Assembly: GCA_964615185.1 (NCBI GenBank)
Contig: CAZTOS010000069.1
Span: 1 to 11,176, forward strand
Source of the DNA: an uncultured Thermococci archaeon
Lineage (GTDB): Archaea; Methanobacteriota_B; Thermococci; Thermococcales; Thermococcaceae
Length of the DNA: 11,176 nucleotides
Direction of reading: 5' to 3'
The notes below the pieces were generated by a model, which was given only the letters and a program-made list of their open reading frames with translations, did not search any database and was not told the origin of the DNA. The first letter of the stretch is position 1. Every line of letters starts with the position of its first letter. A program made the translations under genes and the position numbers. Shown one piece after another: positions 59 through 10,736 of this stretch.

Positions 59-73
59 GAAAAAGATTAATAA
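59..73 (+). promoter_or_regulatory. Putative BRE/TATA promoter of scpB (GAAAAAGA-TTAATAA)
   Basis: A purine-rich BRE is followed by TTAATAA (67-73), about 35 nt upstream of the ATG at 107, with a GGTGAT ribosome-binding site in between. Confidence 0.55.
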
Positions 74-7599: not shown

Positions 7600-7675
7600 G
7601 CACCAGCTCAATGGCATTCGGATAAGGGGGCAACCCAATGAATCCCGCTAATGAAGATTTGAGAGGTGGGAGGAA

Positions 7676-8053
7676 ATGGCTACATTTAAGCTTGTAATCT
7701 CAGATCCAAAGAGTGGAATTGCAAAGCAGGTTGAGATTAGTGGTGCAGAAGCAGAGAAGTTAATTGGTAAAAAGATAGGCGACCAGATTCCAGCAAAGGA
7801 GCTTGGGCTTGATTTAAGTGCAATCTTTGGAAAAGAGATTCCAGCAGATGCAAAGCTCCTTATTAAAGGAGGAACGGACAAAGATGGCTTCCCAATGAGA
7901 CCAGATGTTCACGGGCCAAGAAGGGTTAAGATTTTGCTGTCAAAGGGTCCGGGTTTCAGACCTAAGGAGAAAGGGGAGAGAAGAAAGAAGACCGTTAGGG
8001 GCAATACAATTAGTCCCGATATTGCCCAAATTAACGTCAAGCTTATTTACTGA
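7676..8053 (+). CDS. rps6e: 30S ribosomal protein S6e (eS6)
   Basis: [24 protein letters not shown] and [11 protein letters not shown] motifs. Confidence 0.97.
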
Positions 8054-8083
8054 TTTTCTCCACTTTTTGCTTTTAATTTCCCT
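8054..8083 (+). terminator. Pyrimidine-rich/oligo-T terminator after rps6e
   Basis: TTTTCTCCACTTTTTGCTTTTAATTTCCCT directly follows the stop codon. Confidence 0.5.
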
Positions 8084-8086
8084 TGG

Positions 8087-8232
8087 CATCTTTTGTGGTA
8101 AGGTTAGTGAGCTACTCCACACTGAAGTGCGGAGCTTCTCCCGTTTCACCCGCCTTTACGGCTAAGGCTTCATACGGGAGTTCGGGAGGCTCACATCTCC
8201 CCCATCCCGACGGACTCGTTATCCGTCGGGCT
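8087..8232 (-). ncRNA. Predicted TnpB omegaRNA (reRNA/sotRNA): scaffold ~8232..8107 plus guide ~8106..8087 (UAACCUUACCACAAAAGAUG)
   Basis: GC-rich stems at 8206-8230, 8184-8201, 8138-8180 and 8115-8134, plus a 6-bp pseudoknot GUGAGC/GCUCAC ending at the transposon end. The exact 5' and 3' ends are inferred. Confidence 0.8.
8107..8138 (-). repeat. IS right end: GAAG-CTCCGCAC-TTCA-GTGTGGAG-TAGC-TCAC
   Basis: 8-bp hairpin (one G-T pair) preceded by the guide tetranucleotide GAAG and followed by the cleavage motif TCAC. Confidence 0.88.
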
Positions 8233-9347
8233 AAATTGATTGCAGAGTTTAAATCTCGATTGTAAACTAAACTACACTTAGGACATCTAAACTCCCTACC
8301 TTCAACCTTTCGGGCAACATGCCCACATCTCTGACAAGTCTTGGAAGATTTAGCGGGATTAACATACACGACTGGAATACCCTCTAAATTTGCTTTGTAT
8401 TCGATATATTTTTGAATTTTCCTAAAGCTCCAAGCATGCAACCTTCTGTTTAGCTTAGCCGAGCCGTTCATATTTTCCCTAATGTTTTTCAGCTTCTCCA
8501 TGATTATTACAGGTTTTGGAAACTGTTTAGCGTATTCGACAACTTCTTTCGCAATTGTATGGAGTATTTGATTGACAATTTTCCCTTCTTTACTTCCAAT
8601 TCTCTTAACCAAATCTATTCTCTTTTTTCTCTGCAAATTTCTTCGGATATGAGCATATTTTCCTCGGATATATCTAATTCTTGCTCCGCCCCAGAACTGA
8701 CTCCTCATCGGCTTTGATGGATTGTGCTTAGAAATAGCAACCGCAACAGCTACATTCCATTCCCCTAAATTCACTCCAATGAAAGTTTCTGGCTCGTCGA
8801 TTAGTTCGACATCTTTCTTAAGCACGAAATGGACATACCACTCTCCGTTCTTCTTTACCATTTCAACCGTGCAGAACTTCCATTTTCCTTGCAAAGCTTC
8901 TTCGATGATTTTCTGCTGCCTCTTTCCAAACTTGATTGGCAACGAAATCCTTGTTCTTCTGTTTAAGCTAAGAGTGAGCCAATACGGAGTCAGGATGTTG
9001 GTTGTCTTTGCAAAAGAGTAACATCTCTTATCAAATCTAATTGAAATTCTTTTTAGCGTTGGTTTTTCAGACTTAACTTTACCATTCTTTTTCCTTTCGT
9101 TGAAGCTCTTTAGGATTTCTACTGCTTTGTCTCTCGCTGTTTGAATTAAGGCTGTGTTGAGATTAAATAACTGCTTCGCTTTTTCATAGCCATTCTTATG
9201 CAGAAAAGTCTTTGACGTTGAGTTAAAGTTCAGGAAGAATTCAACTGTTCTGAAATACTCCTTTAAACATTTATTCAAAGCTAAAATCTTCCCTTTATTG
9301 GCATTCCAAACTTTCCCAACTATTGTAATCTGAACTTCCTTCCTCAT
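8112..9347 (-). CDS. tnpB: TnpB (RNA-guided RuvC nuclease family) with a RuvC-I Asp->Asn substitution; predicted nuclease-dead
   Basis: RuvC-I FIGVNLG, RuvC-II VIIMEKL, WSF motif, SSKTCQRC...CPKC Zn finger and RuvC-III NRDLNSAINL. The start is either ATG 9356 or ATG 9347; 9347 has AGGGATG upstream. Confidence 0.93.
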   Translation of the reverse strand: MRKEVQITIVGKVWNANKGKILALNKCLKEYFRTVEFFLNFNSTSKTFLHKNGYEKAKQLFNLNTALIQTARDKAVEILKSFNERKKNGKVKSEKPTLKRISIRFDKRCYSFAKTTNILTPYWLTLSLNRRTRISLPIKFGKRQQKIIEEALQGKWKFCTVEMVKKNGEWYVHFVLKKDVELIDEPETFIGVNLGEWNVAVAVAISKHNPSKPMRSQFWGGARIRYIRGKYAHIRRNLQRKKRIDLVKRIGSKEGKIVNQILHTIAKEVVEYAKQFPKPVIIMEKLKNIRENMNGSAKLNRRLHAWSFRKIQKYIEYKANLEGIPVVYVNPAKSSKTCQRCGHVARKVEGREFRCPKCSLVYNRDLNSAINLARRITSPSGWGRCEPPELPYEALAVKAGETGEAPHFSVE

Positions 9348-9385
9348 GGGAAACATCCCTATTAAGGTTCAATTGGGTTTGGAGC

Positions 9386-9400
9386 ATTTAAACCTTCCTC
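9386..9400 (-). promoter_or_regulatory. Putative tnpB promoter inside the element (GAGGAAGG-TTTAAAT)
   Basis: A purine-rich BRE plus TTTAAAT, 30-40 nt upstream of the tnpB start. Confidence 0.6.
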
Positions 9401-9416
9401 ATCCTCCCCTCATCAT

Positions 9417-9464
9417 CTTGCGTATTCCTGCTTTAAAAAGCGAGATTTTGCAAGCAACAGTTTT
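9417..9464 (-). repeat. IS left end: AAAACTGTTGCTTGC-AAAA-TCTCGCTT-TTTA-AAGCAGGA-ATAC-GCAAG
   Basis: 8-bp imperfect stem with a 4-nt loop (9426-9445), mirroring the right-end geometry; AAAA lies at +16..+19 from TTAT; extra outer stem CTTGC/GCAAG. Confidence 0.72.
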
Positions 9465-9468
9465 ATAA
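9454..9468 (+). promoter_or_regulatory. Putative hybrid aIF2-gamma promoter (GCAACAG-TTTT|ATAA) spanning the IS/host junction
   Basis: TTTTATAA at 9461-9468, 35 nt upstream of ATG 9504, the same spacing as other promoters in this window. Confidence 0.65.
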
Positions 9469-9503
9469 GGGATTCTCCCATTTTATTTTTGGAGGCGAGA
9501 GCC

Positions 9504-10736
9504 ATGGCAAAGAAGAAGTTTAAACAATCTGAGGTTAATATAGGAATGGTTGGTCACGTTGATCACGGTAAAACGACACTAACTAAGGCTTTAACTGGAA
9601 TTTGGACAGATACGCACAGTGAGGAGTTAAGGAGAGGCATCACAATTAAGATAGGCTTTGCTGATGCTGAAATTAGGAAATGTCCAAGCTGTGGGAAGTA
9701 TTCAACTTCTCCACTCTGTCCATACTGTGGAGCCGAGACAGAATTTGAGAGAAGGGTTTCATTCATTGACTCCCCAGGTCACGAGGCTTTGATGACAACC
9801 ATGTTGGCGGGAGCTTCACTGATGGATGGAGCGATTCTCGTAATTGCCGCAAATGAGCCTTGTCCAAGACCACAGACAAGAGAGCATTTGATGGCTCTCC
9901 AAATTATAGGCAATAGGAACATAATAATCGCCCAGAACAAGATTGAGCTTGTTGATAAAGAGAAGGTCCTTGAGAACTACAGGCAGATTAAAGAGTTTAT
10001 TAAAGGAACAGTTGCTGAAAATGCTCCAATAATCCCAATTTCAGCTCTGCATGGAGCAAATATTGATGTTCTCATAAAGGCAATTGAAGATTTCATACCA
10101 ACTCCAGAGAGAGACCCTAACAAGCCTCCAAAGATGCTTGTTTTGAGAAGCTTTGATGTCAACAAGCCAGGAACTCCTCCAGAAAAGCTTGTTGGCGGTG
10201 TTATTGGAGGCTCAATAATCCAAGGAAAGCTCAAAGTTGGGGACGAAATTGAAATAAGACCTGGTGTGCCTTATGAAGAGCATGGAAGGATAAAATATGA
10301 GCCAATAACAACTGAGATTGTCTCTCTCCAGGCTGGAGGAAGGTTTGTTGAGGAAGCTTATCCTGGTGGATTAGTAGGAGTAGGGACAAAACTTGACCCA
10401 TTCTTAACTAAAGGTGACCTGATGGCAGGAAATGTCGTTGGAAAGCCTGGAAAATTGCCTCCAGTATGGGAGGAGCTTCGCTTAGAAGTTCACCTCTTAG
10501 AGAGAGTCGTGGGCACGGAGCAAGAGCTTAAAGTTGAGCCGATAAAGAAGCGGGAGGTTCTCCTCCTAAACGTTGGAACAGCGAGAACCATGGGTCTCGT
10601 CACTGGGCTTGGAAAAGATGAGATTGAGCTTAAACTCCAGATTCCAGTGTGTGCAGAAGTAGGAGAAAGAGTTGCAATAAGCAGACAGGTCGGCTCAAGA
10701 TGGCGTTTGATTGGTTATGGATTCATTAGAGGTTGA
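9504..10736 (+). CDS. eif2g: Translation initiation factor 2 subunit gamma (aIF2-gamma)
   Basis: [17 protein letters not shown], Zn ribbon CPSC..CPYC, DSPGHE, QNKIE and [11 protein letters not shown] 9504 follows GGAGG (the track's TTG 9489 start overlaps the RBS). Confidence 0.97.

Follow-up and report, generated by a model that had tools for sequence, protein, structure and literature searches.

How is a gene still transcribed when a transposon has landed in its core promoter, and has the transposon evolved to supply what it destroys? The question is raised by a locus on a contig from a draft archaeal genome (138 contigs, GC 0.41), which was analysed over its whole length of 11,176 nucleotides and is referred to here as the window. 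A transposon of the TnpB type lies there directly upstream of the gene for the translation factor aIF2-gamma. The original prediction, made from the letters of the window, held that the element interrupts the TATA box of this gene, that its left end rebuilds the box, and that this reflects a promoter-healing strategy by which insertion next to essential genes is made tolerable. The genes that set the scene are as follows, with positions counted along the window.

7676 to 8053, plus strand: rps6e, encoding ribosomal protein S6e, the upstream neighbour (Pfam PF01092, E 1.5e-38).
8112 to 9356, minus strand: tnpB, 414 aa (Pfam PF07282, Cas12f1-like TNB domain, E 4.4e-23, 81.6 bits).
9504 to 10736, plus strand: aIF2-gamma (eif2g; Pfam eIF2_C and GTP_EFTU).

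A PIN-domain gene comes next after aIF2-gamma, and the same order, S6e, IF-2 (gamma) and nucleic-acid-binding protein, is found in Thermococcus onnurineus, in which rps6e forms a transcription unit of its own (TU1069), separate from aIF2-gamma. In the window, oligo-T tracts are read downstream of rps6e at 8056-8082. The aIF2-gamma gene is present in a single copy, the second-best match in the genome being only 34% identical, and is presumably essential.

To find the locus in its uninterrupted form, 60 relatives were queried with the end of rps6e and the surrounding DNA was then compared. Six genomes of the same genus (G002-G007; loci L012-L017) carry an empty site, ...GTGGTAAGGTTA/ATAAAGG..., where the slash marks the point of insertion. 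The spacer between rps6e and eif2g is uninterrupted in all six and reads ...TTTGTGGTAAGGTTA/ATAAAG(G/A)..., and also ...TTTGTGGTAAGGTTAATAAAG(G/A).... Compared with these sites, the extra DNA in the window is exactly 8107-9464, placed between TTA and ATAA, and no target duplication is seen. The boundaries are fixed and unable to slide, with G at 8107 and T at 9464 where the empty site has A at each. The coordinates and the rebuilt empty site proposed earlier, obtained by joining 8106 to 9465, are therefore right as to position and junction in all six genomes; they miss by one base, 9469 being G in the window and A in the relatives.

8107 to 9464, minus strand: TnpB-only element of the IS200/IS605 type (IS1341-like), 1358 bp, the exact extra DNA against six empty sites.
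9465 to 9468, minus strand: target/TAM tetranucleotide TTAT, read as ATAA on the plus strand and adjoining the left end on its 5' side.
8087 to 8106, minus strand: distal half of the split aIF2-gamma promoter, with the BRE GGTAAGG plus TTA at 8097-8106, from the empty-site alignment.

On the strand of the element the layout is 5'-TTAT/AAAACTGTTGC ... GGAGTAGCTCAC/TAACCTTACC-3', which places the insertion 3' of a TTAT that is the antisense of ATAA within the TATA box, just as had been proposed. Read on the minus strand, 8087-8106 is also the flank at the right end and the presumed guide segment of the omega RNA (TAACCTTACC...). In a seventh genome of the genus (G001, locus L018), the spacer between rps6e and eif2g is about 700 nt long, against about 93 nt, and holds an extra small ORF; this genome also has CCTTAATAAG, 43 nt before the ATG, despite its longer and different spacer.

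That the interrupted motif is the aIF2-gamma promoter follows from its conservation and its position. The N-terminus of aIF2-gamma was sought in the loci of 29 relatives (L012-L040), of which 16 matched and the other 13 gave no match. All 16, from four genera, have TTAATAA 42-46 nt upstream of the ATG within the motif (G/A)GTAA(G/C)(G/C/A)TTAATAA, and the intervening spacer diverges. Together with the six empty sites, this conservation bears out the claim that the element sits inside a conserved BRE/TATA of aIF2-gamma. Published transcript starts fit the same reading. The transcriptome supplement of T. onnurineus puts the primary start of TON_1944 (with TON_1943), a unit of its own, 14 nt before the ATG. 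In file 8 of the paper on T. kodakarensis, TK1946 has its primary start at 1758103 and its gene start at 1758091, a distance of 12 nt, and the two genes are paired as orthologs in the T. onnurineus table. The consensus in the P. furiosus dRNA-seq paper (PMC6640164) has a BRE (RRAAA) at -36 to -32, a TATA box (WTTTAAAW) at -30 to -23 and a median 5' UTR of 13 nt. Combined with 5' UTRs of 12 and 14 nt, this geometry puts the TATA box on the TTAATAA motif, at 35-44 nt from the ATG. The motif was thus read in the loci of 16 relatives and the starts were taken from published tables, and the two fit TTAATAA as the TATA box of aIF2-gamma.

For scoring, 1261 SD-led gene starts of the window's own genome, crude and anchored on the SD, were used to train a BRE/TATA promoter matrix. 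Its consensus is (C/G)(A/G)AAAA(G/A)+(T/C)TTATAAA, and the start of the TATA part peaks 39-43 nt from the ATG. Both the matrix and the geometry of the intact and hybrid sites agree with the P. furiosus consensus (PMC6640164). The intact sites of the relatives, TGGTAAGG/TTAATAAAGG, score 10.6-10.7 bits at 42 nt from the ATG. The heptamer is also found upstream of scpB, as had been noted:

67 to 73, plus strand: TTAATAA heptamer 40 nt upstream of the scpB ATG at 107 (the ORF matches Pfam ScpB, PF04079, E 2e-37).

By itself the heptamer is not rare in the window, where it occurs 6 times with 3.4 expected; a count of 6 is attained in 28 of 200 shuffles.

What the insertion leaves in front of aIF2-gamma is a box made of two halves. 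On the gene's strand the element ends in TTTT, which together with the ATAA left over from the target forms TTTATAAG in the register of the intact TATA box; aIF2-gamma therefore keeps a TATA octamer at the old distance, with a poor BRE derived from the element. Positions 9461-9468 of the window read TTTTATAA.

9454 to 9461, plus strand: element-derived bases at the BRE position (GCAACAGT), 1.1 bits against 4.8 for the original TGGTAAGG.
9462 to 9469, plus strand: hybrid TATA box TTT/ATAAG, 8.0 bits, with 9462-9464 contributed by the element's left end and 9465-9469 by the old TATA box.
9490 to 9492, plus strand: predicted aIF2-gamma start (T/G initiator), 23 nt past the last TATA position by the P. 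furiosus consensus; the SD GGAGG is at 9491-9495.

The best site upstream of aIF2-gamma under the genome's own matrix is the junction, GCAACAGT/TTTATAAGGG, with 9.1 bits at 42 nt from the ATG. Insertion raised the TATA part from 5.9 to 8.0 bits and lowered the BRE part from 4.8 to 1.1 bits. The claim that the left end rebuilds the TATA box thus holds, at an unchanged distance from the ATG. The further claim, of a good TATA box with a substitute BRE, stands for the TATA box, which is in the same register, and fails for the BRE, which is weak. Measured against the P. furiosus consensus (PMC6640164), likewise, the hybrid site has a near-consensus TATA box but is without an A-rich BRE.

A score of 9.1 bits lies at the 75th percentile among the best sites of real upstream regions and at the 98th among shuffled ones. 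When the element's end was replaced by a random 11-mer, at least 9.1 bits was reached in 0.7% of 200,000 trials. At 55-31 nt from 1264 starts of this genome, 13 occurrences of TTTTATAA were counted where 1.7 were expected, and 11 of TTAATAAA where 1.2 were expected, which for TTTTATAA is an enrichment of about 8-fold at promoter distance. Between 8500 and 9500, no plus-strand site of at least 5 bits was found besides the junction and one that overlaps it two bases upstream, and the junction is for this reason the only plausible promoter facing aIF2-gamma. The core promoter of the gene would then be the TTT of the element's end plus the ATAAG of the flank, at the spacing of the intact promoter. 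On this sequence evidence the hybrid site is most likely the working promoter of aIF2-gamma, with a start at about 9490-9492; the start at about 9490 that had been predicted agrees with the mapped 5' UTRs of 12 nt in T. kodakarensis and 14 nt in T. onnurineus. The junction is nearly palindromic and scores 7.7 bits in the inward direction as well. The BRE normally sets the strength and direction of a promoter.

At 9469, the window has G, and same-genus empty sites and the element-bearing alleles of sequencing runs X2, X5 and X7 have A; with A the hybrid box would read TTTATAAA, the full consensus, and the G of the window costs about 1 bit. An outward promoter in the loop of the left-end hairpin (CTTTAAAAAG, 9435-9444) was also considered and was rejected, as it scores below 5 bits on the matrix.

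The insertion persists in other sequencing data; among the runs recorded as RNA, none was found to contain the stretch. Contigs bridge both junctions in runs X1, X5 and X7, which come from three studies and include some labelled as single organism, with a depth of 60-90. X1 is maybe the window's own source sample, so the independent support for persistence comes from X5 and X7. These two carry the same insertion, with about 8 differences from the window in every 1.3 kb, and the insertion has therefore been tolerated. The joint of 8106 to 9465 that an empty site would give was absent from the contigs of X1, X2, X5 and X7, in which rare variants can be hidden.

The element itself has the anatomy of a known family. 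Its ends, AAAACTG... and ...GCTCAC, are not inverted copies of one another, and terminal inverted repeats are thus absent. Three features were located within it.

8107 to 8230, minus strand: right end, a structured region and putative omega-RNA scaffold, which ends in ...GTAGCTCAC and into which the 3' end of tnpB extends.
9385 to 9400, minus strand: tnpB's own BRE/TATA (GAGGAAGG/TTTAAATG), 11.7 bits, with a predicted start at about 9362.
9427 to 9444, minus strand: left-end subterminal hairpin (CTCGCTTT-TT-AAAGCAGG) that begins 20 nt in from the end and has a stem that co-varies between copies.

Folding of 14 copies with RNAalifold gave 52 pairs in the last ~125 nt, 17 of them with compensatory changes, including the stem at alignment columns 203-230 of the right end, and a long-range GTGAGC/GCTCAC pairing that extends to the last base of the element. 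The predicted structure, which is drawn from conserved folding, looks as an omega RNA scaffold should, and Rfam gave no match at E up to 0.1 over 7600-9700. The TnpB protein matches Cas12f and TnpB chains in PDB (best E 3.8e-21), and TTTAAAT/TTTCAAAT is conserved at the position of the tnpB promoter in the left-end alignment. The left-end hairpin is presumably the TnpA binding site, by analogy with IS608-type elements. We take the guide to be the flank TAACCTTACCACAAAAG..., following the known TnpB mechanism, in which case the nuclease would target the element-free aIF2-gamma promoter (TTAT plus flank).

Three further promoter-like BRE/TATA sites lie within the 3' part of tnpB on the minus strand, at 8485-8492, 8505-8512 and 8409-8416, with 10.0, 8.6 and 8.2 bits and predicted starts at about 8462, 8482 and 8386. 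They could drive a separate omega-RNA transcript, of the kind that a Halobacterium study reports for IS1341-type genes (PMC4615843).

Codon 196 of this TnpB (8769-8771, minus strand) is AAT, which places Asn (GVNLGE) at the position of the RuvC-I Asp. GVDLGE is found in all 8 related copies that were matched by pattern, and L084, L065, L069 and L087 gave no pattern match. The codon is polymorphic, since runs X2, X5 and X7 have C at 8771 (plus strand) and hence Asp, and X1 and the metagenome contig L072 have Asn. The nuclease of this strain's TnpB is probably inactive through one recent base change.

The element holds no tnpA. The genome's sole Y1 transposase gene (PF01797, C16:12302-12652) belongs to another element. 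That element, a tnpA+tnpB element at C16:12150-14050 of the same genome (G000), has hairpins (CCTCGCCC-TTTA-GGGCGGGG, and a similar one at the other end) that resemble those of the window's family, and it is a candidate trans-mobiliser of the window's element.

No further copy is found in the same genome by DNA, and other TnpB genes there are at most 30% identical, so the ends and targets of the element were learned from other genomes and from metagenomes. Among 96 other genomes of the family one close relative was found (G117, 82% aa). The related loci, 9 from genome contigs and 29 from metagenome contigs, belong to diverse archaeal MAGs. Related copies align end to end over 1361-1379 columns at 78-81% identity. 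The right end always reads ...GTAG(C/T)TCAC, its boundary being conserved in all copies, and 20 of 23 related junctions have TTAT directly before the left end (the exceptions being L065 with TGGT, L079 with ATAT and L099, which is unclear).

Miniature forms occur as well. At least nine copies of a 288-bp element (L092-L099, for example L094:2403-2690; two in L097) were seen in two metagenomes, each made of about 101 nt of left end and about 187 nt of right end (the omega-RNA part) of the L087 type, with TTAT/AAAAA junctions. Two of them, L098 and L092, share an identical 40-nt left flank and have different right flanks, which suggests rearrangement or recombination between copies.

The first four bases of the left end were compared at the 13 full-length left-end junctions that could be aligned; the left ends of L077, L078, L083, L081 and L090/L070 were unalignable. 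Exact TTAT/AAAA is found at 5 of the 13 (the window itself, L080, L084, L069 and L087), and 2 more start with AAAA after a flank other than TTAT. Of the 9 miniature copies, 7 read TTAT/AAAAA, and L095 becomes an eighth if its row is read with a shift. In the window's subclade and in the 61-62%-identical group that includes the miniatures, AAAA is kept and positions 5-7 vary; a related subclade of 4 copies has CTTC, CTTG, CATC or CTTT in place of AAAA. Because TTAT/AAAA is conserved, every such insertion forms TTTTATAA on the opposite strand. To judge from the alignments, pure survivorship does not explain the conservation of AAAA across fairly distant relatives.

Whether other copies of the family sit where their left ends would serve a promoter was addressed by a census of 21 non-redundant sites, of which 13 belong to full-length copies and 8 to miniature derivatives. 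It left out the partial-end rows L067/L086, L068, L082, L085, L088, L091, L100 and L071, the unalignable left ends, and L099, whose left junction could not be placed; duplicates were counted once (L072 with the window, L066 with L084, L089 with L069, L063 with L075, L070 with L090). L098 and L092, with their one left flank, are maybe not independent, and the flanks of L073 and L074 are too short to judge. A gene start on the opposite strand, 20-70 nt from the left end and faced by it, is found in the window at 39 nt and in L096 at 59 nt; L076, with a 50-aa open frame on a short flank, is a doubtful third, which gives 2-3 of 21. Right ends face gene starts at 10-70 nt at 5-6 of the 21 sites, at least as commonly as left ends do. 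Random non-coding TTAT sites would give 15.4% left-facing and 17.2% right-facing starts, or 3.2 and 3.6 of 21, where the background and the matrix come from the window's genome only, the copies from other archaea, the gene calls are crude and n is small. There is thus no excess of left-end-facing starts (2-3 of 21 against 3.2 expected). An excess of right-end-facing starts was entertained and set aside, as 5-6 of 21 against 17% expected is not significant (P about 0.14-0.29). The expected enrichment of other copies at TATA boxes with the left end facing the gene is accordingly not seen; the census is at chance and has no orientation bias.

Several individual copies have other settings. L080 occupies the final codons of a methyltransferase ORF, pieces of a permease gene surround L058, L075 separates the ends of two convergent genes, and L084 comes downstream of an IF-2B-family gene. 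Among the copies with the right end toward a gene start is L064:2381-3735, which has a TATA-like TTTTTAT on one side and, on the other, the start of an intein-containing DNA gyrase A gene (gyrA). The gyrA start is 12-30 nt past the right end, and TTTTTAT with an A-rich BRE scores 10.6 bits reading inward. The insertion has separated this gyrA from its apparent promoter, and the gene would need transcription that leaves the element.

Outward scores at the left end vary widely, with 9.1 bits for the window, 9.9 for L084, 4.8-7.2 for four others and below 3 or negative values for most of the remaining copies. The BRE position of the outward site is not conserved among related copies. In the miniature group the outward score is about -2 because GC-rich bases fill the BRE position, which is strongly unfavourable in the group of L087 and the miniatures. 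Across the family, then, the TATA half of an outward half-promoter (AAAA) is kept in one clade and absent from the 4 copies of the related subclade, and the BRE half is unconserved.

The explanation that we consider probable is a chance insertion at a TTAT that happened to lie in a TATA box, whose AAAA end restored the box and which was kept as little harm was done. A non-autonomous TnpB-only element of the IS200/IS605 type transposed 3' of the TTAT antisense to the ATAA of TTA/ATAA, splitting the aIF2-gamma promoter into BRE plus TTA on one side and ATAA on the other. In this orientation the left end AAAA, TTTT on the gene's strand, comes to lie next to the ATAA that remains, and the hybrid promoter would still drive the single-copy gene from about 9490-9492, so that the insertion could persist and spread in a lineage. 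The locus would then be a survivor of selection, one among many possible TTAT insertions that was retained. The strategy of promoter healing originally proposed goes further, taking the AAAA end as an outward half-TATA selected to make promoter insertion harmless, with safe harbours beside essential genes. It draws on the retention of TTAT/AAAA in the window's subclade and in the 61-62%-identical miniature group while positions 5-7 vary, on the formation of TTTTATAA (13 against 1.7 expected at promoter distance) by every such insertion, and on the rarity, under 1% of cases, with which a random end restores the promoter. The census speaks against it, with left-end-facing starts at 2-3 of 21 and right-end-facing ones at 5-6, as do copies in coding DNA and between convergent genes, the subclade without AAAA, and an outward BRE that is not conserved, with total outward scores of -2 to +7 bits in most copies and of at least 9 bits only in the window and L084. 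We regard such a strategy as very unlikely. Its one unexplained support is that AAAA is better conserved than the bases next to it, in a clade with a related subclade that does without it. A further reading is distinctly unlikely too: the invariant AAAA with the obligatory TTAT might be a selected, portable, near-palindromic TATA octamer that gives a low-cost landing, in one orientation, in archaeal TATA boxes, which are rich in non-coding TTAT, and that perhaps fires both outward and inward. If that were true, the window would be the first caught example at an essential gene.

There are two other accounts. The TATA box at the junction could be irrelevant, aIF2-gamma being transcribed by read-through from rps6e, from antisense starts in the element or from a cryptic start near the SD. 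The element-derived BRE is indeed poor (1.1 bits), weak sites on the plus strand occur deep within the element (8409 and 8485), and pervasive antisense and bidirectional starts are described for archaeal genomes in the P. furiosus paper (PMC6640164). However, no plus-strand site of at least 5 bits lies at 8500-9460 or downstream of the junction, rps6e is a unit separate from aIF2-gamma in T. onnurineus and is followed here by the oligo-T tracts at 8056-8082, and read-through would have to cross 1.36 kb against tnpB transcription, so that this account is unlikely. The insertion might also be unfixed in cells, with an intact allele in polyploid cells or in a mixed population supplying aIF2-gamma and only the element-bearing allele appearing in the assembly. 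Thermococcales are polyploid, the source is a draft of 138 contigs, and in X2 one contig ends at 8106 plus 15 unlike letters and another starts at 9465, which are maybe empty-site relatives. The contigs of X1, X2, X5 and X7 hold no joint of 8106 to 9465, which is weak evidence because contigs drop rare variants, and both junctions are bridged in X1, X5 and X7; a hidden intact allele is highly improbable.

Like other tnpB-only members of IS200/IS605 (IS1341-type), the window's element makes no target duplication, has no terminal inverted repeats, has a fixed TTAT at its left end and subterminal hairpins at both ends, and encodes a TnpB with a Cas12f-like region of RuvC and zinc finger (TNB); as in those with an omega RNA, a co-varying structured RNA appears to run over the 3' end of tnpB to the last base. 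Unlike IS200/IS605 elements with tnpA, it has no tnpA of its own, its TnpB has Asn at the RuvC-I Asp, and its putative omega RNA matches no Rfam family. A 2026 ISME J paper cites IS1 and IS30 for hybrid promoters, and for IS200/IS605 it stresses upstream terminator-like sequences rather than outward promoters. As in bacterial hybrid promoters, with the -35 in the end of the element and the -10 in the flank, the core promoter here is half element and half target at the right spacing; unlike them, an archaeal TATA box would have been rebuilt at an existing promoter and no silent gene activated. Hybrid promoters made by IS elements are textbook matter in bacteria. Full-text literature searches, judged largely from their result listings, turned up no archaeal counterpart in which a TnpB element had rebuilt a TATA box.

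TldR proteins are nuclease-dead relatives of TnpB that act as guided repressors. This copy resembles them in its RuvC catalytic substitution and in a guide-side flank that is promoter sequence; it differs in that the substitution is a strain-level polymorphism (Asp in X2, X5 and X7) and that the gene is still within an intact transposon. A guided repressor of the TldR kind (D196N TnpB) was considered and rejected, since the change is polymorphic between runs and the guide match has no TAM in this genome; the sequence that matches the guide is not preceded by TTAT here because the element itself separates the two.

The locus is a clean natural example of how an archaeal genome can live with a transposon inside the core promoter of a translation factor gene of which it has one copy: the half of the TATA box that was lost is made good, base for base, by the end of the element. 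It offers a simple template set for the need of an archaeal promoter for its BRE in vivo, and it raises the testable question of why AAAA is conserved at the left end. The case alone reveals no new strategy of the element.

Two minor observations concern the wider population of the family. A single low-depth contig of run X2 (5.8x) connects 8148 with 9446, leaving out 1297 bases, with a shorter side of 23 nt; it may be a miniature deletion derivative or a repeat of another organism. In X1 and X2, the summed contig depth is 350-820 at 8083-8204 and 8510-8631, where other bins have about 20-40 (X1) and 10-130 (X2); these vent metagenomes therefore hold many related right ends and a conserved tnpB segment.
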